Of a stretch of DNA of 64,000 bases, positions 21,465 through 60,296 are shown one piece after another; position 1 is the first letter of the stretch; the number at the start of each line of letters is the position of its first letter. The notes under the pieces are model-generated. The model had not been told where the DNA came from. It was given only the letters and a program-made list of their open reading frames with translations, and ran no database searches. The DNA is from Candidatus Kapaibacterium sp. Its GTDB lineage: Bacteria > Bacteroidota > Ignavibacteria > Palsa-1295. The translations under genes and the position numbers were made by a program. The stretch lies in assembly GCA_038240295.1 (NCBI GenBank), contig JBBSDW010000001.1:24875-88874 (forward strand), in the 5' to 3' direction.

Positions 21465-21839
21465 CTATTCGAGGTCTCCTACGATGAACGAGAGGAGGAT
21501 TCCTCCGTATGTCTGCGTGTGATTGCTGACAAAGCCGGTAAGTTCAAAGCCAGCGAGATCCGAGAGTTTATATCCGAAGATTGCTTGCGCCGTTCCTCCG
21601 AGTCCAGAAAGCTCATAGGAATATTGTAGCGTTCGGGGTCCGCCCGGCGGGGTGTAGTAGCTGTCGACGGTAGCCCTTGTATAATTAGGTCCGGCTGCGA
21701 TCGTAGCCCAAAAGTCTCCTTGACGCAAGGTTGCGCCCCATTCAAGGCCGACTAAAGCTCGCAGCACGAAAAAGCTCTGCCGAATTTTTCCGAAGTCCGA
21801 AGGTAGACGTATACCGGAGCACGAGCGTTTGCCAGTCAT
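21465..21839 (-). CDS. Hypothetical protein (Gly/Tyr/Thr-rich); last gene of the interrupted-sigma operon
   Basis: ORF whose start overlaps the upstream gene's stop by 4 bp (ATGA). Confidence 0.35.
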   Translation of the reverse strand: MTGKRSCSGIRLPSDFGKIRQSFFVLRALVGLEWGATLRQGDFWATIAAGPNYTRATVDSYYTPPGGPRTLQYSYELSGLGGTAQAIFGYKLSDLAGFELTGFVSNHTQTYGGILLSFIVGDLE

Positions 21840-22543
21840 GGTGAACCTCGACCTGTATACCCCCCTCCTGTCGTATTCAGCGAACTCATGACAATACCCG
21901 CCTGGAGCCCGGCGCTGAACTGAAATCGAGACGGAGTTAGAGCTGTACTGTGATGATCTACGACTGCTGCTGCCATTTGACGTGAGAACGCAGCAGTAGA
22001 CGCGGAGTCTGATTCGCCCGCTCTCGCATTTTGATCAACAATGTCTCGGTTCTTTGCCGGGGCGTTAGTTGCCCGGATGTTGCTCGACTGTCCATTCAGC
22101 TTGGAAGAGGGATCGCCAATTCCCACCGAAGGCACTCCTGTATCCTGAGCGCGCGTCGAAGTCTGGATCCAATTCCTATTAGATCCACTTATCGGCTTAA
22201 CATGTGATCGAAACTTCGGTAACACGCCTGCACCAAGTTTGAGACTGGACGAAGCTATTGCGTCCAGGTTCGAAATCGGATCGACGCCCTGCTCTTGACT
22301 CGGCATGAGGATGTGTTGCGCGGAGCTCGATGTTATAAATCGCCGCCCCAGTGGCGCGCTTCCAATGAAACGGACAACGAGCACCATCGCAACAGCCAAT
22401 CCACCACACACAAGAACAAGAGGCCGCTTAGACCTTGGGGTCACGGTGTTTTTACGAACGAACGATCGAAGGTCGGCCAGAGATACGGCAGCGTTGTCGG
22501 CGCGCAGGGGCAGGAAAATATCTCCGCTATTTGTAAAAGACAT
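21836..22543 (-). CDS. Membrane-anchored hypothetical protein, possibly an anti-sigma factor
   Basis: One TM helix (LVLVCGGLAVAMVLVV) followed by a Ser/Thr/Ala-rich periplasmic region. Directly downstream of the ECF sigma gene. Confidence 0.4.
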   Translation of the reverse strand: MSFTNSGDIFLPLRADNAAVSLADLRSFVRKNTVTPRSKRPLVLVCGGLAVAMVLVVRFIGSAPLGRRFITSSSAQHILMPSQEQGVDPISNLDAIASSSLKLGAGVLPKFRSHVKPISGSNRNWIQTSTRAQDTGVPSVGIGDPSSKLNGQSSNIRATNAPAKNRDIVDQNARAGESDSASTAAFSRQMAAAVVDHHSTALTPSRFQFSAGLQAGIVMSSLNTTGGGYTGRGSP

Positions 22544-30239: not shown

Positions 30240-30992
30240 TCACTTCTGCGCCACACTAAACGCATATCCGATTTGCGAATCAAGAGCGGCCTTGTTCCCG
30301 GCATCGCGCGGATCAAGCGGTTTGGAGGTTGAACCTTCAAAGACATTTTTGGCGTCTAAGCGAACGTCAACAGTATAACTGTGGCCAGCCAACATGTCAG
30401 CCATTGGTTGGATTGGCGTGATTACCCGTTGAGTGTTTGAGGTCTTGTAAATGAAATTCTGCGTCATGCCGGAGTTGTCTGTTAGTTGTCCTTCGATGAT
30501 AACGCTCGGGCGATCGGCCGTGGCAAAATCGGCAAACGCGGGATCCGAGAGGTGTCCACTTTCCGAGGCATCGAGTTGATGGAGATTGAAGGATATCTGA
30601 TTGAAAATGCCGGGAGGAATTGATAGCGAAGAAAACTGACCTGTATTGCCTGGCGTGAAATCGGCGATCCTGGATCCTACAGTGAAAGTATCAACCGTCA
30701 CAGTGCTCGTATCGACCAAGCTGCCAAAAAACATTGAGCCAATCAGCACCCGTACATGAGTGATCCTTATCGACTGCACAGTAGTACCGGAAGCTGGCGA
30801 GGCCGACTTTGAGCGAGTAGCTTGCAGTGTAGGGTTGAGTAAGTCGGTCGTGGCTGTTACATTCGCGGTCGTGCCACCGGTTGTATTAGGCCCGGTCGAA
30901 GAACTCGAACAACCTGGCATGAGCATGAACAGAATCGTCAACCCAGAAAGTACACGAACGCTGTGACCAAAGAGAATGGAAGTATTTTTCAT
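30240..30992 (-). CDS. Hypothetical lipoprotein
   Basis: Lipobox LMPGCSSSS with a Thr/Ser/Gly-rich linker and a beta-rich body. Confidence 0.5.
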   Translation of the reverse strand: MKNTSILFGHSVRVLSGLTILFMLMPGCSSSSTGPNTTGGTTANVTATTDLLNPTLQATRSKSASPASGTTVQSIRITHVRVLIGSMFFGSLVDTSTVTVDTFTVGSRIADFTPGNTGQFSSLSIPPGIFNQISFNLHQLDASESGHLSDPAFADFATADRPSVIIEGQLTDNSGMTQNFIYKTSNTQRVITPIQPMADMLAGHSYTVDVRLDAKNVFEGSTSKPLDPRDAGNKAALDSQIGYAFSVAQK

Positions 30993-31108: not shown

Positions 31109-31495
31109 TCAAAGTTTCACGAAGCGAATGAAAAGGTCGTGCAGTACTTTTTCGGGGTCGCTCGTGATTCCCGAATGGCACGGGGACGTTTGAATGATCG
31201 TGCTGCGCGGCGCGACAAGCCAATGAAAGCGCTCGTGCTGTGGGAGTTCGCCGATGGCACCTGCCTCCGGTCCGCCGACACAGATGCGCGGGATCATCAA
31301 TAGATGCTCTTCAACTTCATGCAGATCGATCGTTGGAAATAGCGTCTGAATTCGCGGGGCATCGAGTTCGACGCGCGCAGCCAGATACTTGACAACGCGC
31401 GAATAGACGATCACGCCGACGTTGACGAATTCCTCGCGCTCGACTCGCGGCACTACGCGAACGATCGCGTACTCATACGAGCTTTGCTCGAGCAT
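31109..31495 (-). CDS. DUF3037-domain protein; partner of the HipA-like kinase
   Basis: 128 aa protein (YEYAIVRVVPRVEREEFVNVGVIVYS...HERFHWLVAPRSTIIQTS) matching the conserved DUF3037 pattern. Overlaps the kinase gene by 23 bp. Confidence 0.55.
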   Translation of the reverse strand: MLEQSSYEYAIVRVVPRVEREEFVNVGVIVYSRVVKYLAARVELDAPRIQTLFPTIDLHEVEEHLLMIPRICVGGPEAGAIGELPQHERFHWLVAPRSTIIQTSPCHSGITSDPEKVLHDLFIRFVKL

Positions 31496-32288
31496 TTTCT
31501 GCCTCCGTAAGAAAAATTTCTGATGAACTCACACGTTCGAGTAAGTAGCTGACGTAGGCAGCACGATGCGCATTCACATTTTCAAATCCTGAATCAGCAG
31601 GCAGCCAAACCTCAGGGATCTCGGCAACAATTTGTTCGAGCAATTCTTTGCTTACGATGCCGCGCAAATCAGTATCGGCTTCTTTCAATTGCGAAGCGGA
31701 TTTGAGCAGTACGTGATCTTTGATCTGCGTGAAGGGGCTCTTGCTTTTATCAAGCTCGCCTTTCCATTGGTGATGGAAATAGAGCGATGCACCATGGTCA
31801 ATGAGCCATAGATTCTTGTGCCACATGAGCATATTCGCGTTGCGTGCTGTTCGGTCGACATTCGTTGTGAGCGCATCGAGCCAGACGATCCTGGAAGCGA
31901 TCATCGGGTCGATGTTAGAGTTAGCCTTCGGATCGAAGGTGATCGAGCCTGGAAGGTAATCAAGCGCGAGATTGATGCCGGCGCTTTTTGTCAGAAGTTC
32001 GCGAATTTCGTAATCGGGTTCGTTCCGGCCAAGCGCAGGATCGAGTTCAACGAGCACGATCTCTGGAATACGAAGGCCAATTGCTCGCGCCAGTTCACCG
32101 CTGATGATCTCCGCGATCAGGGCCTTCCTGCCCTGACCCGAACCTGTGAATTTTAGCACATACAATCCATCGTCATCCGCCTCGATGATCGCAGGCAGCG
32201 ACCCGCCTTCGCGAAGAGGCGTGACATACCGAGTAGCTCTAAGTGTGCGTAACATTCCCCAAATATACCGGATGGAACTGACGAACAC
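31473..32288 (-). CDS. HipA-like / atypical protein kinase family protein
   Basis: Kinase-like catalytic loop NVDRTARNANML and metal-binding LIDHGASL (D..N and DxG-like). Gly-rich YVLKFTGSGQGRKALIAE N-lobe. Confidence 0.5.
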   Translation of the reverse strand: MFVSSIRYIWGMLRTLRATRYVTPLREGGSLPAIIEADDDGLYVLKFTGSGQGRKALIAEIISGELARAIGLRIPEIVLVELDPALGRNEPDYEIRELLTKSAGINLALDYLPGSITFDPKANSNIDPMIASRIVWLDALTTNVDRTARNANMLMWHKNLWLIDHGASLYFHHQWKGELDKSKSPFTQIKDHVLLKSASQLKEADTDLRGIVSKELLEQIVAEIPEVWLPADSGFENVNAHRAAYVSYLLERVSSSEIFLTEAENARAKLV

Positions 32289-35379: not shown

Positions 35380-35805
35380 ATGCGAACATTCAATAGAGAA
35401 GAATTCAAGGATCTTCGCAAATCATTGCGAAACGATGCAACATTTGCGGAGCGCATTTTCTGGTATTCCTTGCGTGGCGCGCAGTTGGATGGTCGAAAGT
35501 TTCGAAGACAGCATGGCATCTTGAATTTCACTGTAGATTTTTATTGTCCAGAAGAGAAGCTGGTGATCGAGTTGGATGGCGACGTGCATGATCTTGAGGA
35601 GGTCGCTGCGTACGATGCGCCAAGGCAGCAGGTTCTGGAACGCATGGGTTGCAAGGTCTTGCGCTTCAAGAACAATGACGTTATCGAGCGAAGCGATGAG
35701 GTGATCGCGACGATCAAACAAACTTGGCAGGGACGCGAGCGCGAGTCTGTTAGGACTACACGAGTACGATCGCGGCGAGTGCGAGACTCAGGCGATTCGG
35801 GATAA
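35380..35805 (+). CDS. DUF559 endonuclease-domain protein (Vsr/PD-(D/E)xK-like)
   Basis: FRRQHGILNFTVDFYCPEEKLVIELDGDVHD...RFKNNDV matches the DUF559 signature. Confidence 0.75.
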   Translation: MRTFNREEFKDLRKSLRNDATFAERIFWYSLRGAQLDGRKFRRQHGILNFTVDFYCPEEKLVIELDGDVHDLEEVAAYDAPRQQVLERMGCKVLRFKNNDVIERSDEVIATIKQTWQGRERESVRTTRVRSRRVRDSGDSG

Positions 35806-36674: not shown

Positions 36675-37097
36675 TTATTGGTTTGATTGGCGGAAAGCTT
36701 CTGGAGTCAATAGCGCAAGCATTTCACGAGGACGGAGAATCCCGATTGCATTGCCAACATCGACCGTCAGCAGATCTTTATCACCCGTTACGAGAAATGT
36801 TGCAGCGCTCTTTATTGCCGCAGCAAGGATAAGAACATCATTGGGGTCGCGAACAACAAACTGAACTTCGAAAGGAGGTAGAATTATCTCCCACGAACGG
36901 GACAATGCTGCAAGGAACACTTCAACATCCTCTGGTTGCGCATAAACTTTCGCGATCAGGACCCTTCGGGTTTTGACAAGGATTTGATCGCTTACAATTA
37001 TCCGGTGACTCGTAACCAGATAGTGGACCAATGCACGCGAAACTCCATTTGTGGCGAACGCGGAGATGAGTACATTTGCATCTATAAAAATTTTCAA
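36675..37097 (-). CDS. PIN-domain ribonuclease toxin (VapC-like)
   Basis: MKIFIDANVLISA...LVTGDKDLL, conserved acidic PIN residues. Confidence 0.7.
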   Translation of the reverse strand: MKIFIDANVLISAFATNGVSRALVHYLVTSHRIIVSDQILVKTRRVLIAKVYAQPEDVEVFLAALSRSWEIILPPFEVQFVVRDPNDVLILAAAIKSAATFLVTGDKDLLTVDVGNAIGILRPREMLALLTPEAFRQSNQ

Positions 37098-37327
37098 GAT
37101 ACTTCGTTGAAGATATCCTCATCAGTCAAGTAACCCTTCTCGCGCGCAAGTGGGGTTATATAGTCCTCAAATTCCTTGATTTTTTTGAGCAGCAGCTGTC
37201 TTCGTAGAAGATCATTGACGATCTCGGTCGTGCCTCTATGCTCGACACTGCTTTCCTCTTCCAGCAGCGCAAATAAGTCAGGCTCAATGATCACCGTATG
37301 TTGGATATCCGTTTGGCGTGTACTCAT
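37094..37327 (-). CDS. Putative antitoxin partner of the PIN toxin (78 aa)
   Basis: Small acidic ORF overlapping the PIN gene start by 4 bp. The internal Met was chosen because the upstream part of the ORF is a degenerate duplicate of the hmgA 3' end. Confidence 0.4.
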   Translation of the reverse strand: MSTRQTDIQHTVIIEPDLFALLEEESSVEHRGTTEIVNDLLRRQLLLKKIKEFEDYITPLAREKGYLTDEDIFNEVS

Positions 37328-37648
37328 ACTCGTTACTACAAAACAGAAATACGGAAAGTTTATTCTTACGTTTTCGAACCCTCTTTCTTCTCCTCCCAGC
37401 TTCCCCAGTGTTTTTCCACTCTGCGACTTCTCGGCTGGCAGGACGATCGTGAGCGGCTGGCAACAGCAGCCTTTCTCATGCGTTAGCAATCGCGTGCTGG
37501 GCGGCATTAGCCTTGTTCGATCATAAAAGACTTTTATCTGCTCCATACAAGTTCTCCCTTTTTGATTCCATCAGTCAGGTAGGCTGGTATGAAAAAGCCG
37601 ACACCGTTCAAACGCTTTATGACCGAACAAACGAAGTGTTTCGAATTT

Positions 37649-41106: not shown

Positions 41107-41826
41107 CTATTCAAATAGCGGTTGGCAGTCAACTAGCGAATAGGTTGTTGGAAAAAAGCCGAAGATCGTGTGCTCACCCATTAGACCCTGGAAATCGGTT
41201 GTACCATTGATGCCAATATGATTAAAGCTGACCGTAATGGTGTCATCGCACGGATGATTCGGATCGTAGACTTTGATCGTGGTCATCGTGTCTGTGATCT
41301 CATAACCCCACGCGAGGACCTGGTGATTGAGCTTGAGTTTAAAGGGGTCGGGAGAATGTGTGCAGACGAGCCCCAGCGGACACGGGTGTCCGCTATCGAT
41401 CACACGTTTGATCGCTGGCATTGATTGATGGACGGTGCGCCAGGATGTGCCACGCAGCAAAAGTCCGGCGAAGAGCATCGTGTCCTGAGAGGCAAGATTC
41501 ATCCAGCCATAATAATCGAGCACTCCTTTGGGGAGATCGAAACTTTGGAGACTTCTTCGAAGAAGAAACTTGAATGCGTTTGAATCGGCATGCGGAGCAG
41601 TTGTTTCTGGAGGAGCCAGCATTTTCCGTTCGAAGAGATCCCTCGCGGCGTAGACCATGCCTCCGCATACTCCATTGGAGGCGTCACCAATTCCAATTTT
41701 TTTCGCGCCGATGATCGCAAGTTCGACATAAGGAACATGCGGCCACACGTTCGAATACTTCAGTCCATAGATCGAAGGGAGAAACCCGTCGACCAAGTTC
41801 TTCAACGTCCCCAATTCATCCTTCAT
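41107..41826 (-). CDS. Hypothetical protein with a possible papain-like Cys/His/Asp catalytic arrangement
   Basis: GVCGGMVYAARDLF (Cys at a helix N-terminus), later HQVLAWGYE and YDPNHPCDD. No signal peptide. Adjacent to tRNA-Leu. Confidence 0.45.
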   Translation of the reverse strand: MKDELGTLKNLVDGFLPSIYGLKYSNVWPHVPYVELAIIGAKKIGIGDASNGVCGGMVYAARDLFERKMLAPPETTAPHADSNAFKFLLRRSLQSFDLPKGVLDYYGWMNLASQDTMLFAGLLLRGTSWRTVHQSMPAIKRVIDSGHPCPLGLVCTHSPDPFKLKLNHQVLAWGYEITDTMTTIKVYDPNHPCDDTITVSFNHIGINGTTDFQGLMGEHTIFGFFPTTYSLVDCQPLFE

Positions 41827-41854
41827 CCTTCACCCCTCATCCTTGCCCGAAGTG

Positions 41855-41939
41855 TACCGACAGCCGGACTCGAACCGGCACGTTCCTTACAGAACAACGG
41901 ATTTTAAGTCCGTTGCGTCTACCATTCCGCCATGTCGGC
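41855..41939 (-). tRNA. tRNA-Leu (anticodon UAA), class II with a long variable arm
   Basis: Hand-folded: acceptor gccgaca/tgtcggt, D arm gcgg-aatggtaga-cgc, anticodon stem acgga/tccgt with loop cuUAAaa, long variable arm, T arm gccgg-ttcgagt-ccggc. Confidence 0.8.
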
Positions 41940-42290
41940 AACAAGATTTGAATCGGAGACAGATGCGTGTGTGGGTTGCATCATCGATTCCCATAACACC
42001 TTCGAAAATCGTCTAAATTTGACGCTTTTAGACGTTTCTGAGCCAACTTATGGACCTTTATTACTTAGGAAAACAGTAAGTTCCGGGTTTTGGTCGCACC
42101 AATTTCTCAGGTTGATGCCGAAAATTTGTAGGATTTGCTGAAATTACCTGTAATCTGCGTAAATTCCGTTCCAATAAACGGTGGTATCCGGGAGAATTTT
42201 CCCGAGATGGGGACCACGTCTTCGACCCTTTGCAACCTCGGTTTGAATCCCAACACTTTTTTTTCGACTTTTGAAAAAATGTCGTAGTTC

Positions 42291-43811
42291 ATGATTCAAG
42301 TTGCTAGCTATCTTTGCACCATGATTTTACATCCCCGCGTTCTTCTCGTGAGTTTACTGTTCATCATCTCCGCATTGTTTGAATCTGCAGAGGCGCAAGT
42401 ATTCGATGCATCTGCCATCTATCAAGCTGCGGTTCGAGGTGTAGTACTTGTCGAATCTCAAGGCGGTACAGGTTCTGGGTTCTTCATCAATCACGATGGG
42501 TGGTTAGTCACAAACCGACACGTCATCGAAGCCGAAGATGGTTCGCTTGAGAACGCGAGTGAAATTCAAGTTTACACCGCGGATTATGCCGACACCCTAT
42601 CAGTGGTGCAAATTATTGACGCCAGTAACGGGAAGAAAATAAATGGCTATTCACATCCTGATCTTGTCTTCCTCCGAACTGATTTTAGTCCTAAGCTCGT
42701 GCTGCCCTTGTCGCCTGATGCAAATACACCTGTAGGCGAACAGGTAGAACGAATCGGCAATGAGCTGAGTGGCAATTGGGTCCAAGCAAATGGATCTGTA
42801 TCCACGAATAATCTGCCGGAATTCCTCCAAATTCAGACGCCTGTAAACCATGGCAATTCTGGTGGGCCACTGCTAAATAAAGCCGGGCAGGTTGTCGGTG
42901 TAGTTACTCTGACGTTTCAAAACATCGCGGAGAATACCAATTTCGCGACCAAGAGCAGCGTCCTCAAAGAACGTCTCGCGGCACATAACATTAAGTTTTA
43001 TACTCGGGGCATCGTCAAGGTCGGTGAGTCCCCGTTGGAGCTTAACGCCGAGCAGGTAAACCGTGATCGTGATTCGCTCAATGTTGATAATGATCGATTG
43101 CGGATTCAGCGTGAGACGCTCGATCAAGAAAAAGATAAATTCAGGCAGCAGCAGATCGAGAACGCGGCGACGCAGGCATCCGCGATTGCAATCCGGAAGG
43201 AACTTGCAAACAAAGAAAGCGAATTGCAAATACGGGAAGACAGCCTTGTAGGCCGTCAACGGGAATTGGAATCAGCCGAAGCATCTCTACGATACGCGAA
43301 GAAATCATTTCAACAGGATTATGATGCAGCCCAGTATCTTTCGCCACCACGTTTCGCCATAGAGCTCATGGGGGGAGTCGGTTATTGGTACGTCCGCGAT
43401 ACAGTAAGTTATGCGCAGCCCCGCTTTACACTAACAGCGCTCCATCGATTCGATCTTAACAAACAGCAGGGTCACGAGAGCGACGCAGCGAATCGCATTG
43501 GCGTGCAGTATGGCGTGCATGGCGTCTTCGATGGTAAGAATGGAATCCTGCAACGCGGCTTCGCACAAGAGTTATCGATTCTGCTCGACCTCCACGAAGT
43601 TACTCGGTTTCAATTTGGTCGAGTCGTATCTCGAACATATTCCTCCGCTGCCGGAGACGAATACTGGTTGGTCGGGTTTGGCGTGTTTGTGCATCCCTAT
43701 CCGCTGCCTATCACGATCTATGGTTCAATGGTGAGCGATAACCGATTTTTCCAGAATTCCTTCGTCGTCGGTCTGTCCATCGGTTACGGCGATAACTTCC
43801 TCCAGATGTGA
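42291..43811 (+). CDS. Secreted trypsin-like (S1/HtrA-type) serine peptidase fused to a ~90 aa coiled coil and a beta-rich C-terminal domain
   Basis: Signal peptide. His (WLVTNRHVI), Asp and Ser (NHGNSGGPLLN) of the chymotrypsin fold. Heptad-rich segment (RDRDSLNVDNDRLRIQRETLDQEKDKFRQQQIEN...). Lower GC than the flanks. Confidence 0.7.
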   Translation: MIQVASYLCTMILHPRVLLVSLLFIISALFESAEAQVFDASAIYQAAVRGVVLVESQGGTGSGFFINHDGWLVTNRHVIEAEDGSLENASEIQVYTADYADTLSVVQIIDASNGKKINGYSHPDLVFLRTDFSPKLVLPLSPDANTPVGEQVERIGNELSGNWVQANGSVSTNNLPEFLQIQTPVNHGNSGGPLLNKAGQVVGVVTLTFQNIAENTNFATKSSVLKERLAAHNIKFYTRGIVKVGESPLELNAEQVNRDRDSLNVDNDRLRIQRETLDQEKDKFRQQQIENAATQASAIAIRKELANKESELQIREDSLVGRQRELESAEASLRYAKKSFQQDYDAAQYLSPPRFAIELMGGVGYWYVRDTVSYAQPRFTLTALHRFDLNKQQGHESDAANRIGVQYGVHGVFDGKNGILQRGFAQELSILLDLHEVTRFQFGRVVSRTYSSAAGDEYWLVGFGVFVHPYPLPITIYGSMVSDNRFFQNSFVVGLSIGYGDNFLQM

Positions 43812-44260: not shown

Positions 44261-45319
44261 TTAGCCGATCGACATTCGGAATGGATAGAGAATGAAGAAG
44301 CGCTTTTCGGGATAGAAGCGGAAGGCTGGCGCTGGAAAATGCCAGTAGTCGATGCCTCGCTTAAAGAATTGCCAGATGCCGTTGTCCCAATCGGGTAAGA
44401 GTTTGCCGATGTCGTAATCGAGCGAGATCTGCCACGCCTTGTGACGTAGATCGAAGATATGATCTGGATGTGCGTTGTCGAGGGGTTCGAGATATTCGCC
44501 CGAAGCGCCAAGAGCAAGGTTCAGCCATTTTGGCCAGTATTGTTTAAGACCTTCGGGAAGCATGCCGTGAATATCGAAGCAGAACCAATATGCCTGCCCG
44601 CCATAGTCCTCAATAAAATTAAGCGACTGCCCAGGTATGTCCGGCTTATTCTCGAGATATTTATTGCTTGGAAAATAAGACCATTTATACTGGAAATTTC
44701 TAAGAAACGGAATCCGATTGCGCGCGAGGAACATCGTCGCCCCTAAGATATCTGCCTTTGCATCGCCACGGGAGAACCCCCACTGTGAAGCGAATCCATC
44801 TTCGATCTCCACATAGAATTCCCAAAGTGCGCCGCTAAAGGCTGCCAGGAGCGTTGAAGTGGCGCTATCCATTCCAGCCCAGGTGTAGGCTTCATCGAAA
44901 AAATGCGAGCTGTAATAGGCCCCGAAGGTATGCCCAAATTTGTCAAACTCGGCCTGATAGTCGGGATCTTCGATCACATGAAAGCGTGTACGGTCATTCT
45001 TCCACCATGCGTTACTTTGATAAACATGGAACAGTCCCACCGCAGCAGCAAGAGATCCAAAAGAGATTGCGACGCGGTCCCACTTAACAACTGGCTTAAC
45101 CGAAGTGTCGACCCGCTCAGGAGCACCCGGATGTTCCAAAAGGACATGGTCGGACCTATGGAATGGCGCCATTATTGGCGTTCCGCCGGTGCTATCGCTT
45201 GCGTTCATTCCGGTAACATACCTTTGCTGCGAGATCGCCTGCCCCGGCAGAAGCCAGGCGCAAACTACAATGCCAACGGAAACCATGATCCAAACGATGT
45301 GCCGTTTATTTGTGCGCAT
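44261..45319 (-). CDS. Hypothetical secreted protein, Trp/aromatic-rich
   Basis: N-terminal TM/signal segment (IVWIMVSVGIVVCAWLL); no confident family assignment. Confidence 0.45.
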   Translation of the reverse strand: MRTNKRHIVWIMVSVGIVVCAWLLPGQAISQQRYVTGMNASDSTGGTPIMAPFHRSDHVLLEHPGAPERVDTSVKPVVKWDRVAISFGSLAAAVGLFHVYQSNAWWKNDRTRFHVIEDPDYQAEFDKFGHTFGAYYSSHFFDEAYTWAGMDSATSTLLAAFSGALWEFYVEIEDGFASQWGFSRGDAKADILGATMFLARNRIPFLRNFQYKWSYFPSNKYLENKPDIPGQSLNFIEDYGGQAYWFCFDIHGMLPEGLKQYWPKWLNLALGASGEYLEPLDNAHPDHIFDLRHKAWQISLDYDIGKLLPDWDNGIWQFFKRGIDYWHFPAPAFRFYPEKRFFILYPFRMSIG

Positions 45320-45894
45320 TAGTTGTCCCGAAAGCGTAATCCAATGGTGATACCACTAAAGAGCCCGGTCGCCTGACCGAGATAGACCACCGGCGTAACA
45401 AATGCACCGGCTTCCAGCGCAAGACACTTACCGAGCGCATAAATAATACCTGCGTTCAGCGGAATGCCGATCGACACTCGCGTCAGTAATGCGGAAAATT
45501 CTGGACCGATCGCAGCGTAACCTGCCAGTTGCTCTCCTTCTCCGAAGAGTCGCTTGAGTTTCAGGGTAAATCCATACGAATCGAGATGAAACTCATGAAA
45601 CGTAAAAAAATCGAGCGTCTGGAAGTTTTCATAACTCAGCATCAACTCAACACAAAGCGCCAAATGATTGCCGACCGAGACATCGTAGAACGGATTAATG
45701 ACGGGCTTCGGGCCATCCAGATTCCCTCGATGCGCTACACCGAACCGCACACCGTATGCACCTGATGTCACGATCGCTCTGGAATCGCCGGTATGCATTG
45801 TCGCAGTCGAATCGGTTGTCTGGGCTCGCGAGAGTTCGAAGGAATGCAGGAGGAAACATCCGATCAGGCCGATGGCAATGAAGAATTTGGTCAT
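45319..45894 (-). CDS. Small outer-membrane beta-barrel (OmpW/porin-like) protein
   Basis: Signal peptide plus ~170 aa of alternating amphipathic beta-strands. Confidence 0.5.
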   Translation of the reverse strand: MTKFFIAIGLIGCFLLHSFELSRAQTTDSTATMHTGDSRAIVTSGAYGVRFGVAHRGNLDGPKPVINPFYDVSVGNHLALCVELMLSYENFQTLDFFTFHEFHLDSYGFTLKLKRLFGEGEQLAGYAAIGPEFSALLTRVSIGIPLNAGIIYALGKCLALEAGAFVTPVVYLGQATGLFSGITIGLRFRDN

Positions 45895-46391
45895 TGCTTG
45901 GTTAAAAGAATTTCAACATAATGCGCCGAATCTGCTGGTAGAAAAAGGCTCCCTTCGGTAATATTCGTTAGCGTATTGACTGTCACATCGCAGGCGATCG
46001 CGGTTCCATTCTGCTTCGACTGATCGAGCGTTTCAGCTTTTGGATACAAGTATCCGTTGATGTGTGCAAAATAATTTGCGTAGTAGGCAATGTTCCCAGC
46101 GTACGCGTCATCGATCGCTGCCAGTCCTTCGGGTATCGTGTTTCCTGATGATCGGCCTGTCCCTGTGACCGCACCATTTTGCTGCGATAGCACAAGTGCG
46201 AAATGCGCCGTGTCGGTGGGGACTGTAGTACCGATCGAAGAGAGCGATAGTTTGCCGGTATACGTGCCATTGACACTGAACGAAGTGAAATCGCTCGACC
46301 CGAAATCATTCATCACCGCAGTGCACGAACTGAGCGCCGCGCAAGCGGTCAAAACTAATATCAGTTTCCTATTCACAACTCCCTTTCCCAT
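45891..46391 (-). CDS. Hypothetical lipoprotein
   Basis: Lipobox LSSCTA with Thr/Ser/Gly-rich content. Overlaps the next gene by 4 bp. Confidence 0.45.
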   Translation of the reverse strand: MGKGVVNRKLILVLTACAALSSCTAVMNDFGSSDFTSFSVNGTYTGKLSLSSIGTTVPTDTAHFALVLSQQNGAVTGTGRSSGNTIPEGLAAIDDAYAGNIAYYANYFAHINGYLYPKAETLDQSKQNGTAIACDVTVNTLTNITEGSLFLPADSAHYVEILLTKQ

Positions 46392-53293: not shown

Positions 53294-55333
53294 TCATTTC
53301 GTCTGCAGTTCGGCTGCGAGCGGCGTCTGCACTTCGACCGTGACCGTTCGGCAATAGTAACGCCCTTCCGGCAGGTCGTTGCTATAGACCTGACGGTTTG
53401 ATCCGACGCCTTCGGTCCTGAGAATCTGCGTGTTGCTTTTATCGGCAAGGATAAGATCGCGCACGGCAAAGGCTCTACCCTGCGAAAGTTGCTGATTGTG
53501 TTTTGCTTCACCCAGATTATCGGTCGAGCCGATGATCGTCGATTTCGAACTATCGAGAATTGAATGCGCGACAAAGTGCGAGATCATCCGTTGATTTTGC
53601 GGAGTGATCGCCGACTTATCGAAATCGAAGACGATCAAACTCAGTCTGCTTAGTTCAAACGGATTCGTCGACTTCGCACTCGGGATTGATGTTCGACTGG
53701 TTGAACTAAGCCCGTCGCGGCCGTTTACGATCAAATTGCAATGAAGAGAATCGAGCGGATGGGTAGCGCTTGCGACGTTTGCGGTTGCCTGACTCGTGAT
53801 CGGCCAGTTGATATTCGTCGGAGGTCTTCCGAGGCCCGAGGTCTGCCAGATATTTTTATCTCTGGCGTCGACTGTCAATTTCCAGTGTTCGACATCGGCA
53901 GGATGATCCGTCTCAACGGCGAATGGTACCGATGCCGGTTCGTACGCATATTCTTTAAAGCGTTCGTGCAGGATCGGTCGCAGCAATTCGTCGTTCGGGC
54001 TGGTCAGTTCGACGCGTCTGTTTTCCTCGATGCCTTGCGGAAATTCGAGCGTCGATGGGAATGTCGGTCGCGTGCTGGTCGAAATCGTTATCCGCTGCGG
54101 CGCCACGCTCCAGGTATTTACGAGATACGACTTCACGCTTTCGGCACGCGCATTTGCGAGTTCAAGCGAGGCAGCTTCCGATGGGGTTTCTTTTCCATCG
54201 GTGGTTCCGTTGAGCACAAGTGCATAACTGCTGTCACGTGCCATCCTGCTTCCGATGACATTCAGAATATGATGATAGGCTTCGAGCGAATGGTGCGGCA
54301 GATCGGTCTCTTGGAATGAACGGGTGTCGTTGACGGCGATCGGATGATATCGAACGGGAAGCTGCGCGTTCGCGCTATCGAAGAAGACATAAGGCAAAAG
54401 TGGGAATGTCTCAGTCACGATCGTTTCGACGATCGTCAAGTGCGGAGCATTTACCGTAGAGAGCAATGCGATCGGCGGCACTGGCTGCATTTTTTTCTGA
54501 GCAAGCACCGGTGGCACGAGATTCGGCGCATCGGGAAGTTCGAGGCCCGGAGGTGAATATCGAAGTGCAAGTCCAAATTCGAGCGAGCTTACTTTCCAGC
54601 TATAGCCACTGACAATTCCTGTAAAGGGCAAGTAGTAGCGCACTTCGGGAGCGGCAGTGAGTCCGACACCGAACGGAAATTGATAGCCGAGCGCACCGGC
54701 CATTCCAACCGGCATCTTGATCCCGGCGATCGCACCCGTCGCAACATCGCGCGTTGTCGTGTGCGTCTGAGGATAGACGACCCCTTGCGGCGAAAGGATC
54801 TGTTCGGTCTGATGATAGCTCGATGAGCCGAGCGGCGCACTAACGTTAAGTGTCGCCCGCGCATAAAGTGGAAATGTCGCTATCGGTTTATATTCGAGTC
54901 CGACATCGAGAACCGCGAACCCAAGATTTGCACTCGCGCTGTTCTTGCGAAGCAAGGTCACATACTGATTCGTGTTTGGATCGAGAATAGGAAGTAAACC
55001 CGAATTGACAACGCCGAACGTACCTCCGCGCTGCGCATATTGCAGGCTTGCGTAGAGCCCCATCCCCTCCGTGAAAAAAGGCAGCGTACCGAACGCGCCT
55101 AACGAAAATCCACTGCCTGTTCCCTGATCAAAATTTCCGCAGTTGACACAGTTCTGAAATAGCTGCTCCTGCGTTTTATGGAAGTTGAGGGAGTATCCGC
55201 TTAAGAGCCCGAGCGAAAAAGATTGCGGCGAATAATTTTCAGTCGCCTCCTGCGCGAATGCAGAAGTCGCAATCATGAGCATGAGCATGCCGGCAAGTGC
55301 GCAGCTCACTGTATGAAGAGATTTAAAAAGCAA
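53294..55333 (-). CDS. OmpA-family outer-membrane protein (N-terminal beta-barrel region plus C-terminal OmpA/MotB peptidoglycan-binding domain)
   Basis: Signal peptide. C-terminal FDFDKSAI...NQQLSQGRAFAV OmpA-like domain. Confidence 0.8.
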   Translation of the reverse strand: MLFKSLHTVSCALAGMLMLMIATSAFAQEATENYSPQSFSLGLLSGYSLNFHKTQEQLFQNCVNCGNFDQGTGSGFSLGAFGTLPFFTEGMGLYASLQYAQRGGTFGVVNSGLLPILDPNTNQYVTLLRKNSASANLGFAVLDVGLEYKPIATFPLYARATLNVSAPLGSSSYHQTEQILSPQGVVYPQTHTTTRDVATGAIAGIKMPVGMAGALGYQFPFGVGLTAAPEVRYYLPFTGIVSGYSWKVSSLEFGLALRYSPPGLELPDAPNLVPPVLAQKKMQPVPPIALLSTVNAPHLTIVETIVTETFPLLPYVFFDSANAQLPVRYHPIAVNDTRSFQETDLPHHSLEAYHHILNVIGSRMARDSSYALVLNGTTDGKETPSEAASLELANARAESVKSYLVNTWSVAPQRITISTSTRPTFPSTLEFPQGIEENRRVELTSPNDELLRPILHERFKEYAYEPASVPFAVETDHPADVEHWKLTVDARDKNIWQTSGLGRPPTNINWPITSQATANVASATHPLDSLHCNLIVNGRDGLSSTSRTSIPSAKSTNPFELSRLSLIVFDFDKSAITPQNQRMISHFVAHSILDSSKSTIIGSTDNLGEAKHNQQLSQGRAFAVRDLILADKSNTQILRTEGVGSNRQVYSNDLPEGRYYCRTVTVEVQTPLAAELQTK

Positions 55334-55355: not shown

Positions 55356-58300
55356 CTAACGGACGATCATCATTCGTCGCGTATCGTGATAACTTCCAGC
55401 CTCGAAGCGGATGTAGTAAGCTCCGGGGGCACATCCTGTGAGGTCGAGATCGACGGAATATTTTCCGCCTTTCATCAATGTATAACCATCGAGCGGCCTC
55501 GAAACGACTGCACCGGTCGCACTGTAGACTTTCATCGAAGCGTAGGCATCTTCAACAAATTCGACATCGAGCTTCACGCGGCCGTTCGATGGGTTCGGCG
55601 ATGGGATCGAGATCGAATTGATACCACCTTTGAATTCAAGATAGGAAATATTGCAGCGCGGATCGACGCGCACGCTTGTTGTGTCGCCCATCGGCACTGG
55701 CGTAATCCAGAGATCCGAATCGCTCGTGAAGAGCGCCGGCGCAAGGATCATTTTCGTAACAATACTATCCGGGACTGCGACAACAAACTTGATCCGAGCG
55801 ATCTCACCCTTCTTGACATTCTGCGCTTTGGGCAGTGAGATCGAAAGGCCTGCGCCAATTTGTTTTATTACCGGCGTCGCATAGCTCGAGGTTGCGCTCA
55901 CATATTGCAGCGCACGGCGATCGTAGACGAGCGAATACTTGATGTCGATCGGATTCAGCGGGAAATCTCGATCGATCATGATCGGTACATACACCGTATC
56001 CGAAATCACTCCGGCAACTGAATCGATCGAGCTTACGGTACCGCCGATCACAAGGTTTAGCGGAAAGGGCGGCGCATAGCCGAAACTATGCAGGCTCCCG
56101 CTGTCATTGATCGGACAGGGACTATTCGAGACCGAAAAAAGCGAGGTATCGAATGTTGCTTGCGCGCGCGGACAAAACCTCACGGTCAGTACGATCGAGT
56201 CACCTGGCGCAAGGATCGCTGGGTATGGCTTGTTGCTTGCGACTACGGAATGCCACTTAGGCAAGCCTACAAGCGAATCGAAGCGAACCGGAATCAGACC
56301 GGGATTCCTCACCGTCACAAATCGATCGTCACACGAACGCGCATTTACCGTATCGAATCTGGTGCCTCGCGAGATCGCGATCATCGGCTGCGCGATCTCG
56401 ACATATCCTTTATCGATACCGGCGACGATCTTAAAAAAGACAAGCGAATCGCTATCGAAGAAAATACTGTCGATCGAAATTGGAAATTTCGTCGCTCCGC
56501 CCCTCACGACGAACTTCACATAGGCGATGACTCCCGCCTGCACGTTGCGCGCATCTTTCAGATTTGCATGCGCACCGTCTGTAGAATCTTTAATGGTTGC
56601 AAGGGCGGTGTATTGCGACTGGATGCCGATAATTCTGAGCGCTGTTGTGTCGTATCCAAGCCTGAAAATGATGTCGATGATATTCTGCGGGATCGCGCGG
56701 CTGAGCATGATCGGCAGCGTGAGCGTGTCGCAGGTGTTCAGTACGATCGTATCGCGATCGACCTTGGCGGTGTCAAAAGCCATTTGCAATCCAAAGGCTG
56801 GAGCGAACCCACTACCCATGACGAGTATCGATGTATCGATGCCATCGCACGGAAACACCGTATGCAAAAGCATCCTCGCGATATAGGTCTTGGGCGCACG
56901 CGGGAAGAAATTCACCTTGACCGAAAATTTCTCACCACGATGGATCACCCACGGCAGCGGTGCACCTGTCGAGGCAACGACGCTGAATACTTTTTGATCG
57001 GGTTGAAACGAGACCCAATCGATAACGACACTATCGCCGCTCGGATTAACGAACGGATCGGGCACTGCAATATCGACGGCGATCGCCTGCGCGCTCGTGT
57101 CGACGCGGGTTGCAGGAAAATTGACGAGCACTTTGCTCGGTTGAAAATTGAGCTCTCGCCGTCCGCTTAGGATCGTGGTATAGGTTTGCGACCAGCCCGG
57201 CGTATGTGCAGCGATATGGAGCGTTGCGTTGAGCAGCACGTTCGCCTGAATAGCCGGGATGTTGGGACAGAATGAAATCGTGAGCGTATCACCCGATCCG
57301 GGTGGAATCCTGTAAGGCGCCGTTGTACCAGCGATGAACGAACTCCAACGATAAACCGTCGGATTCGGATTTGGCACACCGGCTCCGTCGATCCAGATCG
57401 AATCAATCGTGATCGGAACGAGATTGCTGTAGTTCGGAAGCGGTATCGATCGGTTGAGACAATCGCACGGCTTGATCAAGCTATAATTGACAAAGCTGAG
57501 TGGAACCTCGAGTTTTACAAGTTGCCCATTGCCGGTTAGTACACCGCCATAACTGATCGTACATGGTTGATCCGTCTGCACGGTGATGGGACCATCGTAG
57601 CTCGTCTGGGTCGTTGGTTTGAACTGCACATAAACCCATAGGCTATCGCGCGGCTGCAGGAGATCTGGCAGCGGCGGGTTTGTGCTGAGCACAGTGTAGC
57701 CAGGCGGCACATTGATAGCTGTGATGTGCAGCGGGATCGAACTATTATTTTCGAGTAGGATGCTATCCGTTTTTTGCCAGCCGACTTCTACGGTTTGAAA
57801 TGTGGTGAGTGGCGTTACATACAGTTTCGGCGCAAGGCTCGTCGCACGAATGAGCAATTCATATTTTTCGCCATTCGATAGATTGATATCGATGTAGCCA
57901 TCGTCGGCACGATCGAGCACGAGATCGTTCGGGCAATAGGTTACGATATACTGGATCGCAGTGCCCGCTTTGAAGAGTCCCGCATGCGTTGCGCTCACGA
58001 GTTTCATCTTTCCGCTTGGATCGATGAGTTGATCGTTCGTGACCGTAAGATCGGAACTTGTGATGTTCGTCGCCGTGATCGTATCGGTTTGACACTGACA
58101 TCCGATCACATCCGTGATCGGCAGATAAGGCGGCTGAAATGAAAGATCCTGAAAGACACCCGTGCCCGTGATCGGAATTTCGATCGTACTAAAACATCCT
58201 TCGTCGAATACGGCAAGTGTGTCAACGTAATTCTTTAACTCTCGCGGCCTGAATTCGACGGTGATCGTTTTGGTCTGCCCCGGCTGGATCGTAAACGATT

Positions 58301-60296
58301 TTCCTCCGACGATCGTGAAGACGTCCCCAATCTTTAAATACGAAGCAAGATCGCGGGCATTGGCTCCGTGATTGGTCACCGTCGCAGTTAATTGCAGTGT
58401 CTTACCGATCGTGACATTTCCATACGCGATCAACGCTTGATTGAACGAAAAGTCGACGGATATGCCGCTGCCACTTAATCCTATGCGCTTGACGATCGTG
58501 CATCCATGATAATGGGAATAGACTTTCATTTCCCCGGCCACAGGACCCGGCGCAGTAGGTTTGAATCTTACGTAAACAGCCTGATACGCATTCTTGGGTG
58601 CAAGCTTGATCGGGAAGCGAAAGGACGGTCCAAAAAACTGCGGCTGACTGTAGGTGATCGAATCGATGTAGACCGTATCGACGGTGAGCCCGCGATATTG
58701 ATAGAGTCTCACGCTCGAGATCTGCGTTGGACAAACAGCTTCGAAGGCCATCGTATCGACGATGCGCTTGCCATCAGTTGCGAGCAATGCGATCACCGCC
58801 TGCGACCTTCCGTAGATCGGGATCACCCCGCTGCCCGGGCACGCATCGTTACTCTTGATACGAAGTGTGTCATAGAGCGTCTTTGAAGAATCGAGCTGAT
58901 CAAAATGGACCATCATGATCCAGCACTGGCCTGGCTGAAGTGTCAGCGGCAACGCGCCAAATCCTCCAGCCGGATGCCACGTGAAATAATTCGAATCGAA
59001 CTGTGCACCGGAGATGGTGACAGGCGTGCCGGCGATGTTGCAAATCTTTACCGTGTCCTCATAGAACTTCGTTTCTTCGCATCCGACATAAAGCGTATCG
59101 AACTTCACCGAGCCTGTAGAGTAACTTAGCTGCGTTGTTCGGTTGATCGTGATCGGTACCGAGAGCGGTGTGCCGCACCTGTTCGCGCTTGTTATCACCA
59201 GATTCGCAGTGAGCGTCCCGATCTGGTTGGCGTGCAGATCCATCGTTACCTGCTGACCTACATTTTGCGACAGTACGAGTGACTTTGAAGAAAGCGTGAA
59301 CAACCCAGCTGAGGCACCGCTCACACTTAGATTGACCCGATCGCCGCAAAACGAAGTGTCGGTGATCGTAAAAACAAAGGTTGTATCGCTTGTGCACGCA
59401 AGCGATGTTGCGACGGATGCGGGAAGTACCGTATAGGTTAGCGGGACGACGCGAGTGCTTACATCACAGTGTGCACCGCTTCGCATCCTGCCGATCATGT
59501 GACCTGCTGCATCGCAAAGGAATTGGGTGCCTACAGGTTCGTTGCACCTGAAATACATGATGAGCCCAGGCTCATTTCCACTTAGTGAAAGAAGTCGCTG
59601 GCAGTCGACCTCATGCTGCGAAAGTGCGCGGCGCCACAATCGGACTTCGTCGAGTTGCCCAAGGAATGCACGGTAGCGCGACGAATCATCATAGAGCGCG
59701 TTGCAGCTTGCGAGCTGCATGCCGAGCGCCGAACTTTCGATCGGATGAAGATGCGTGATCGGATATTGCACGTTGCCGGTTCTCGCGACTTCCTGACCAT
59801 CGACGAGTAACCTTCCCTGCGTCGATTGTCCATCCCACACGGCTGCGATGTGCACCCAGCCTCGCGTATAGAGGTCGGGTATGAGCGCCTGCACAATCGT
59901 GTTATCGAGATCGCCTTTAAATGATCCATCGGGACTGAGCGCAAAGACAAGTTCGTTGTCCTCGATATAAACGACCCACTGATCGTTGTTGTCTTTGTTC
60001 GGTCCCCAGAGTCCAGCGACAAATTGCCGCTTGCCCGGTTGCGGCTTTGGTGCGATCCAGGCCTCGAACGTCATCGCAGTATCCATCGCGCGCATGACAT
60101 AAGACGTATCGATATCGACATACTGCGCGCCCTTGCCAGCCGTCACCCGAATCGTAAGCGCATTGCCAACGCATGATTTATCTCCATCGCATTTCGCTGG
60201 ATACTGTGCACGTACGTCGCTGCTCAACAAAAGCGCGATCATCGCGACGCAACCCAGGAGCACTCGGATGGCCGAATGGTGACGATTGAAGTTCAT
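55356..60296 (-). CDS. Giant cell-surface protein (1646 aa): LamG/ConA-like lectin domain, many Ig-like beta-sandwich repeats, T9SS C-terminal sorting domain
   Basis: Signal peptide. LamG-like FEAWIAPKP...WVHIAAVWDG...LDEVRLWRRAL. Repetitive beta-sandwich modules. C-terminal KVYSATGAVV...GAYYIRF domain. Confidence 0.8.
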   Translation of the reverse strand: MNFNRHHSAIRVLLGCVAMIALLLSSDVRAQYPAKCDGDKSCVGNALTIRVTAGKGAQYVDIDTSYVMRAMDTAMTFEAWIAPKPQPGKRQFVAGLWGPNKDNNDQWVVYIEDNELVFALSPDGSFKGDLDNTIVQALIPDLYTRGWVHIAAVWDGQSTQGRLLVDGQEVARTGNVQYPITHLHPIESSALGMQLASCNALYDDSSRYRAFLGQLDEVRLWRRALSQHEVDCQRLLSLSGNEPGLIMYFRCNEPVGTQFLCDAAGHMIGRMRSGAHCDVSTRVVPLTYTVLPASVATSLACTSDTTFVFTITDTSFCGDRVNLSVSGASAGLFTLSSKSLVLSQNVGQQVTMDLHANQIGTLTANLVITSANRCGTPLSVPITINRTTQLSYSTGSVKFDTLYVGCEETKFYEDTVKICNIAGTPVTISGAQFDSNYFTWHPAGGFGALPLTLQPGQCWIMMVHFDQLDSSKTLYDTLRIKSNDACPGSGVIPIYGRSQAVIALLATDGKRIVDTMAFEAVCPTQISSVRLYQYRGLTVDTVYIDSITYSQPQFFGPSFRFPIKLAPKNAYQAVYVRFKPTAPGPVAGEMKVYSHYHGCTIVKRIGLSGSGISVDFSFNQALIAYGNVTIGKTLQLTATVTNHGANARDLASYLKIGDVFTIVGGKSFTIQPGQTKTITVEFRPRELKNYVDTLAVFDEGCFSTIEIPITGTGVFQDLSFQPPYLPITDVIGCQCQTDTITATNITSSDLTVTNDQLIDPSGKMKLVSATHAGLFKAGTAIQYIVTYCPNDLVLDRADDGYIDINLSNGEKYELLIRATSLAPKLYVTPLTTFQTVEVGWQKTDSILLENNSSIPLHITAINVPPGYTVLSTNPPLPDLLQPRDSLWVYVQFKPTTQTSYDGPITVQTDQPCTISYGGVLTGNGQLVKLEVPLSFVNYSLIKPCDCLNRSIPLPNYSNLVPITIDSIWIDGAGVPNPNPTVYRWSSFIAGTTAPYRIPPGSGDTLTISFCPNIPAIQANVLLNATLHIAAHTPGWSQTYTTILSGRRELNFQPSKVLVNFPATRVDTSAQAIAVDIAVPDPFVNPSGDSVVIDWVSFQPDQKVFSVVASTGAPLPWVIHRGEKFSVKVNFFPRAPKTYIARMLLHTVFPCDGIDTSILVMGSGFAPAFGLQMAFDTAKVDRDTIVLNTCDTLTLPIMLSRAIPQNIIDIIFRLGYDTTALRIIGIQSQYTALATIKDSTDGAHANLKDARNVQAGVIAYVKFVVRGGATKFPISIDSIFFDSDSLVFFKIVAGIDKGYVEIAQPMIAISRGTRFDTVNARSCDDRFVTVRNPGLIPVRFDSLVGLPKWHSVVASNKPYPAILAPGDSIVLTVRFCPRAQATFDTSLFSVSNSPCPINDSGSLHSFGYAPPFPLNLVIGGTVSSIDSVAGVISDTVYVPIMIDRDFPLNPIDIKYSLVYDRRALQYVSATSSYATPVIKQIGAGLSISLPKAQNVKKGEIARIKFVVAVPDSIVTKMILAPALFTSDSDLWITPVPMGDTTSVRVDPRCNISYLEFKGGINSISIPSPNPSNGRVKLDVEFVEDAYASMKVYSATGAVVSRPLDGYTLMKGGKYSVDLDLTGCAPGAYYIRFEAGSYHDTRRMMIVR

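Follow-up and report, generated by a model that had tools for sequence, protein, structure and literature searches.

The locus described here raises the question of whether two genes that adjoin a transfer RNA (tRNA) gene in a Candidatus Kapaibacterium genome came there together as a mobile islet or are unconnected accessory genes, and of what their products might do. It lies in a 64,000-nucleotide (nt) stretch of contig JBBSDW010000001.1 (assembly GCA_038240295.1, positions 24,875–88,874 of the forward strand), hereafter "the window," in which a tRNA-Leu gene with anticodon UAA is the sole tRNA gene and the sole Rfam match. The original prediction, made by reading the letters alone, placed a class II tRNA-Leu(UAA) on the minus strand at 41855–41939, and Rfam agrees (RF00005, 62.2 bits), while ARAGORN gives 41854–41939. 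As also predicted, this gene is flanked by open reading frames (ORFs) for a 239-amino acid protein (41107–41826, minus strand), a putative papain-fold hydrolase, and for a 506-amino acid precursor (42291–43811, plus strand), which consists of a protease domain, a helical stalk, and a putative β-barrel. The best explanation of the whole, to which we give roughly even odds, is that these are two independent accessory genes in an Ignavibacteriota-type genome, one encoding a tethered protease-stalk-barrel protein and the other a papain-fold hydrolase. No functional link between the two genes was found.

The 506-amino acid protein begins with a Sec-type signal peptide (residues 1–35, 42291–42395, plus strand, as are all features of this gene), whose hydrophobic core, VLLVSLLFIISALF, is followed by A-E-A and a junction of the form SAEA/Q. 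In the family alignment Met11, Ala35, Gln36, and Phe38 are invariant and the A-Q-x-F junction is kept in all homologs; translation may in fact begin at Met11 (42321), the residue that lines up with the starts of the homologs, and in orthologous protein P0256 a signal peptide is present after its start is extended upstream. An S1C (HtrA/Deg-type) protease domain follows (residues ∼51–232, 42441–42986) and matches Pfam Trypsin_2 over residues 61–204 (E = 3e-19). Its triad is His77 (42519–42521), Asp124 (42660–42662), and Ser190 (42858–42860, in the motif GNSGGP), and these three residues are invariant or nearly so among homologs. The signal peptide, the domain match, and the intact triad bear out the earlier call of a secreted chymotrypsin-fold S1 peptidase. 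The exact sequence is present in public collections, where the cluster that contains it at 90% is represented by a 47-amino acid fragment; a homology search therefore cannot return the protein itself, which is a database artifact.

HtrA, DegP, and DegS are defined by their PDZ sensor domain. The window protein shares with HtrA, DegP, DegQ, and DegS (MEROPS family S1C) a chymotrypsin-fold domain with a His-Asp-Ser triad, but it has no Pfam PDZ match at E < 0.1, its best score against the NCBIfam Do-family model (TIGR02037) is 56 bits where the cutoff is 416.2, and it adds a helical stalk and a β-stranded C-terminal domain. All 12 NCBIfam protease models, including DegS, DegQ, and HhoA, score far under their own cutoffs. 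The statement in the original prediction that this is not a standard HtrA, having no PDZ domain, thus holds; what follows the protease domain in the structure model is a helix and eight strands. Among members of a well-known family, the protein has a rare architecture that is not curated, and within the terms searched no description of a protease-stalk-barrel architecture was found in the literature. A Foldseek search with the full 506-residue model was dominated by protease matches and was uninformative on the C-terminal domain. PADLOC returned only generic trypsin-domain (RT-Protease_XI, PDC-M35A) and coiled-coil matches, and a role in anti-phage defense was rejected because nothing beyond these generic domains was matched.

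In the AlphaFold model, the protease domain is followed by a linker of low confidence (residues ∼242–273) and then a charged helix at residues 271–349 (linker and helix together 43014–43337). The helix has ∼79 residues, would be ∼12 nm long if straight, is modeled with predicted local distance difference test (pLDDT) values of ∼74–88, and is rich in Q, A, E, R, and K. A coiled coil of ∼90 residues had been predicted here. A long charged helix of nearly that size (∼80 residues) is indeed present, but its heptad signal is weak (41% core residues at the a/d positions versus 21% overall), so that it may form a coiled coil or be stable as a single helix. The stalk is present in 16 of the 16 protease-bearing family members measured, with 100–206 residues between the catalytic serine and the barrel, and in most of these 16 the stalk region is ∼50–60% charged residues or glutamine.

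The C-terminal domain (∼150 residues, 43350–43784) is the putative outer-membrane barrel anchor. AlphaFold places eight strands in it between residues 354 and 498, each of 9–17 residues, in agreement with the predicted β-rich character, and the strands are amphipathic, with hydrophobic residues alternating with polar or small ones. It was anticipated to be neither a PDZ domain nor another known module, and no PDZ match (E < 0.1) or curated barrel family match (E ≤ 1) was found. When a profile of the domain was compared with the PDB, the best matches were porins, at an insignificant E of 0.12, and hhalign comparisons with OmpX, OmpA, and OmpW were weak (OmpX probability 11.5%). Like OmpX, the OmpA N-domain, and members of OMP_b-brl (PF13505), the domain has ∼150 residues and eight amphipathic strands, its family has mostly hydrophobic or aromatic C-termini, and it occurs in stand-alone forms behind a signal peptide; unlike them, it serves here as a C-terminal anchor for other domains, and the similarity is sub-threshold only. 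A kinship with the neighboring 191-amino acid protein was also considered and rejected, since comparison shows the two to be unrelated.

An exhaustive profile search with the C-terminal domain (1.84 billion cluster representatives, E ≤ 1e-3) found it to be rare, in 46 clusters among the 1.84e9 representatives. In the 43 members scanned, the head that precedes the stalk and barrel is a trypsin domain in 20, a CAP domain in one, and a small Cys-rich domain in two, and about 18 consist of a signal peptide and the C-terminal domain alone (200–280 amino acids). Since the domain is found with other heads and also with nothing but a signal peptide before it, it appears to behave as a modular small-barrel anchor. 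Most family members end in W, F, Y, M, I, or L, and a single one, P0259, matches OMP_b-brl (PF13505; E = 2.4e-4, 21.8 bits, under the gathering cutoff of 28.7). The nearest full-length relatives are ∼30% identical, and two of them, P0001 and P0002, have every part of the architecture and the C-terminal sequence FRFGVGKW. A metagenome scan with a three-sequence family alignment gave 80 loci that match in the protease domain only, one of which (L088) has a weak match to the C-terminal domain. A closer ortholog, 45% identical over a 214-amino acid stalk-and-barrel product, lies on metagenome contig L082. In that contig a 1-nt frameshift in an A-rich run within the stalk (L082 4380–4450) divides the gene into ORFs for a 267-amino acid protease and the 214-amino acid stalk-and-barrel protein; it may represent misassembly, a pseudogene, or a site of slippage.

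The analysis shows the protease fold with its triad, the missing PDZ domain, the helix, eight strands of amphipathic character, and the reuse of the C-terminal domain as a module. We read these as an HtrA-type protease that is anchored in the outer membrane and reaches into the periplasm, a reading in which membrane insertion, periplasmic orientation, oligomeric state, and substrates are inferred. The Sec signal peptide would direct the protein to the periplasm, where the head would act as an S1C HtrA-type serine protease with His77, Asp124, and Ser190 intact, and a charged helical stalk of ∼80 residues would stand in place of the PDZ sensor. The eight-stranded, ∼150-residue C-terminal domain would be inserted into the outer membrane as a small barrel by the β-barrel assembly machinery (BAM). 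Because the strand number is even, both ends of such a barrel would be periplasmic, and the head would hang ∼10–12 nm below the outer membrane. It would there degrade or process envelope proteins, its range being set by its position and not by a PDZ domain. The closest functional analogy is with the OmpM/SlpA/Omp-alpha tethers, which have a periplasmic head, a coiled-coil stalk, and a C-terminal outer-membrane barrel (PMC10628300, PMC9388160). The order of parts is the same in the window protein, which is nevertheless not a member of that group: its head is a protease and not an SLH domain (there is no Pfam SLH match), its barrel is far smaller (eight predicted strands), and no sequence relationship was detected. 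When it is set beside the trimeric stalks of the OmpM/SlpA type, the window protein is predicted to have a long helix and then strands, with a weak heptad signal.

The 239-amino acid protein gave a confident AlphaFold model (52 sequences in the alignment, mean pLDDT 91.6, pTM 0.88) with a papain-like fold. Four residues are invariant across the 52 homologs and are the candidate catalytic residues (full-protein numbering, minus strand): Cys54 in GVCGGM (41665–41667), His168 in NHQVLA (41323–41325), and Asp188 (41263–41265) and Asn190 in YDPN. Cys54 stands at the N-terminal start of a helix (model residues 53–65). The fold and the invariant residues corroborate the papain-like Cys…His…Asp arrangement that was seen in the bare sequence. 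There is no match in Pfam or NCBIfam at E < 0.1, none in PADLOC, and none to a PDB sequence at E ≤ 10, and the modeled fold appears papain-like yet distant from all solved structures. Its identity to the C39-like C-terminal domain of BtaeB (a Bacteroides fragilis type VI secretion system effector, 9jdd), to staphopain, to streptopain, and to IdeS is 10–12%; a literature search on 9jdd and BtaeB found no enzymology. The protein differs from these clan CA peptidases in having no prodomain, no signal peptide (as judged by eye), no type VI secretion context, and no match to a curated family (C1, C10, C39, C47). At least 249 homologs exist, all annotated as hypothetical, many from Frankia and soil metagenomes, and some carry C-terminal Tectonin, B_lectin, MIR, PASTA, or DUF7910 domains; the lectin-type fusions hint that its targets may be glycan-associated. 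On alignment and model, the protein is a putative stand-alone clan CA-like cysteine hydrolase (Cys54/His168/Asp188) of an uncurated family, probably a peptidase or an amidase. Only 28 nt (41827–41853) separate the tRNA-Leu 3′ end from the ATG of this gene on the same strand, and a purine-rich GGGGTGAAGG directly precedes the start. The gene may share a transcript with the tRNA and be freed from it by tRNA processing.

Several observations weigh against this reading of the two proteins. The C-terminal strands of the protease are modeled at pLDDT 45–79 from a shallow alignment, so confidence in them is moderate, their loops lack the regular succession of long and short that marks classic small barrels, and the domain matches no curated outer-membrane-barrel family in Pfam even at E ≤ 1. 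The protein ends in NFLQM, with a methionine and not the aromatic residue that the original prediction had given it, although its orthologs end in W, F, or Y. Given the weak heptad signal, oligomerization through the stalk is unproven. No conserved partner gene that would indicate a substrate was found at the loci examined. For the 239-amino acid protein, the best Foldseek match of the model is not significant (E = 0.039), and no conserved neighborhood was found for its family on three long contigs.

Whether the two genes have a common origin was addressed through composition and gene order. The original prediction held that the protease gene is ∼46% GC in surroundings of ∼58%, a contrast that was overstated about fourfold: the gene is 49.2% GC (third percentile of same-size windows) and the 239-amino acid gene 50.3%, against 54–55% for the flanking MATE, dioxygenase-like, and RND (resistance-nodulation-division) genes and 52.45% for the whole window. 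The mildly GC-poor stretch runs from 40.66 to 46.41 kb (49.1%, versus 52.8% in the remainder) and so is not limited to this pair; the next three genes beyond the protease gene (44261–46391) are 49–51% GC. The sliding GC and codon comparison proposed with that prediction confirmed a small GC drop but found synonymous codon choice ordinary in both genes (z = −0.77 and +0.26, scored against all other window genes). By tetranucleotide usage the 3-kb windows over ∼40.0–45.0 kb are the least typical (r ∼0.70–0.74 versus a mean of 0.89, z −3.2 to −4.1), and part of this signal is accounted for by their lower coding fraction (0.72 versus 0.89). The protease coding sequence alone is the most atypical of 18 coding chunks of 1.5 kb (z = −2.6), and its first 720 bp rank first of 54 (z = −4.4). 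Related protease genes are also GC-poor relative to their own surroundings, at 37.5% versus 40.8% on L082, 54% versus 59% on L167, and 49.8% versus 52.7% on L088 (L168, almost without flank, was left out of the comparison). Because the gene lies 3–5 points below its surroundings at these three other loci, the lower GC looks to be at least partly a trait of the protease gene family. The same pattern in the window and on L082, L167, and L088 might otherwise reflect frequent transfer.

A clearer compositional outlier than the 239- and 506-amino acid genes lies nearby at 36675–37546, where a PIN-domain toxin gene (140 amino acids) and an upstream partner (150 amino acids, without a Pfam match) are the lowest-GC genes near the protease locus (46–47%; the PIN gene has a third-codon-position GC fraction of 0.41 and a codon z of −2.27). 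The most atypical synonymous codon usage in the window belongs to two ORFs without Pfam matches at 21836–22543 and 30240–30992 (z = −3.4 and −2.6), which may be foreign or not genuine genes.

From 35.4 to 53.3 kb, the gene order begins with SDR, the PIN toxin pair, homogentisate-dioxygenase-like, YjbR, and MATE genes, continues with the 239-amino acid gene, the tRNA, and the protease gene, and ends with a DUF2279 lipoprotein gene, two genes for small envelope proteins, and an AcrB/MFP/OEP (RND) efflux operon. The two genes had been said to have no functional link to their neighbors, which is only partly so for the protease gene, as the genes beyond it also encode envelope proteins (the lipoprotein, the two small proteins, and the RND operon). 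The divergent tRNA and protease genes are separated by an AT-rich spacer of 351 nt (41940–42290, 41.9% GC), presumed to hold the promoter region; promoter and terminator scans of it were at chance level and Rfam gave no match there. A synteny search seeded with the MATE gene among GTDB species representatives, which do not include the source genome, gave 80 loci, and neither the 239-amino acid gene nor the protease gene is present in any of them. The best match, in an Ignavibacteria metagenome-assembled genome (L002, MATE 82% identical in amino acid sequence), is the only one in which the tRNA is kept (98.9% nt identity, same strand as the MATE gene). Five genes lie between tRNA and MATE in L002, encoding an NHL-repeat protein, a cupredoxin, an unknown protein, DoxX, and cytochrome c, and hisG stands on the 5′ side of the tRNA, where the window carries the protease gene. 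The remaining genes on the flanks are likewise different, which makes L002 too distant for a recent gain to be told from general rearrangement. Both genes are thus accessory and non-syntenic.

These facts bear on the interpretation first proposed for the locus, that both genes arrived together as a small, horizontally acquired islet integrated at the tRNA-Leu gene, which we now consider improbable. Like tRNA-linked genomic islands, the locus combines tRNA adjacency (both genes adjoin it), a somewhat atypical composition (GC 3–5 points under the flanks, and the lowest tetranucleotide correlation at ∼40.0–45.0 kb, with the protease coding sequence first among the 18 chunks), and a gene content that differs from that of a relative, L002 having only the tRNA and MATE in common with the window; relatives of the protease gene elsewhere also have varied surroundings, some of them mobile, with IS200-type transposase, toxin-antitoxin, and HNH genes nearby. 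It is unlike such islands in other respects. No direct repeat of the tRNA 3′ end, expected within 40.6–44.3 kb on that interpretation, was found anywhere in the 64-kb window by a general repeat search or by two probes (22 and 16 nt of the tRNA 3′ end, ≤3 mismatches), whose sole match was the tRNA itself. A Pfam scan of the ORFs at 35.4–53.3 kb found no integrase, transposase, or other mobility gene, and codon choice is ordinary. An element integrated at a tRNA 3′ end extends to a single side, whereas here the tRNA has one gene on each side. The GC-poor stretch continues through three further envelope genes to 46.4 kb, the protease family is GC-poor at three other loci too, and L002 is distant enough that other flank synteny is gone as well. 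What stands of horizontal acquisition at the tRNA junction is the accessory, non-syntenic character of the two genes; they are not shown to have integrated at the tRNA, and a foreign low-GC islet is only weakly supported.

A different doubt concerns the C-terminal domain of the protease, which might be a soluble β-sandwich for oligomerization or substrate binding, in which case the protein would be an HtrA-like protease without PDZ domain, soluble in the periplasm or secreted, that assembles with itself through a coiled coil. The moderate confidence of the domain model and the missing significant match to an outer-membrane-barrel family would allow this, and alternating hydrophobicity occurs in sandwiches too. 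We nevertheless judge it quite unlikely, since the stand-alone forms with signal peptides and hydrophobic or aromatic C-termini resemble small outer-membrane proteins, one member matches OMP_b-brl, the best (though insignificant) PDB sequence matches are porins, and the strands, at 9–17 residues, are long enough to span a membrane and carry polar or small residues on one face.

Surface display in the manner of an autotransporter, in which the barrel, perhaps oligomerized through a coiled coil, would export the stalk and head for extracellular work such as protein foraging, has in its favor an order of parts (N-terminal enzyme or passenger, extended stalk, C-terminal barrel) shared with type V autotransporter proteases (SPATEs, NalP) and trimeric autotransporters, the typically extracellular CAP domain among the other heads on the same anchor, and a very short β1–β2 and long β2–β3 connection that would suit an outside N-terminus, but it has little chance of being correct and is disfavored by the strand count and the missing anchor-family matches: no Pfam Autotransporter or YadA_anchor match was found at E < 0.1, type Va anchors have 12 strands and type Vc anchors 4 per chain, where the window protein has eight, the stalk is formed by one charged helix instead of a β-helix, ∼18 family members are a bare signal peptide and barrel with no passenger, and no 8-stranded barrel is known to have a pore wide enough for polypeptide passage.

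The surroundings of the protease-stalk-barrel genes on other contigs are varied. An S41 peptidase gene neighbors the one on L082, an IS200-type transposase gene the one on L170, and separate TerB and DnaJ genes the one on L172, while on L167 the neighbors encode PemK, DUF4365, HNH, and secreted Cys-rich proteins and a TerB-DnaJ fusion. The small genes directly upstream in L167 and L172 were considered as a conserved partner and rejected, as they are mutually unrelated. TerB and DnaJ thus adjoin the protease-stalk-barrel genes on two unrelated metagenome contigs, fused as in DjlA at L167 7486–8220 and separate at L172 1489–3078; they are absent among the genes scanned at 35.4–53.3 kb of the window. 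The recurrence may point to an envelope co-chaperone link and is a lead rather than a finding. The secreted Cys-rich protein of L167 is encoded just upstream of the protease-stalk-barrel gene (5233–5661) and has a weak Ada_Zn_binding match with the motif YH..C...PCK.C; the same domain is the head fused to stalk and barrel in P0269 and P0292.

Elsewhere in the window, a 1646-amino acid protein (55356–60296) has Ig-like and lectin-like repeats and a C-terminal type IX secretion sorting domain, and its gene adjoins one for a 679-amino acid protein with an OmpA domain (53294–55333); both fit a cell envelope of the Bacteroidota/Ignavibacteriota type. The wider region also holds several accessory genes of toxin or defense type, including those for a HipA-like kinase (31473–32288) and a DUF559/restriction-endonuclease-like protein (35380–35805) a few kb before the tRNA-Leu locus.

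Current understanding is unchanged unless membrane location and activity are confirmed. The unannotated papain-like family, with at least 249 homologs, is a candidate for family curation. As for the protease-stalk-barrel protein, we tentatively suggest, while regarding it as a doubtful extension of the tether reading, that the stalk and small barrel are an undescribed, reusable outer-membrane anchor in bacteria of the Bacteroidota/Ignavibacteriota type, a molecular ruler that would place HtrA-like, CAP, and Cys-rich Zn-ribbon-like heads at a set depth much as OmpM and Lpp set the distance between outer membrane and cell wall, and that the window protein would be a quality-control protease regulated by its position and independent of PDZ domains. 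Protein quality control gated by PDZ domains in the bacterial envelope has its standard example in the HtrA proteases. If the suggestion is true, a lineage that replaces the PDZ sensor by a rigid stalk and barrel would control its protease by placement and not by peptide sensing, and the same anchor behind other heads could give a poorly studied group of bacteria a general means of holding enzymes at a defined periplasmic depth or on the surface.

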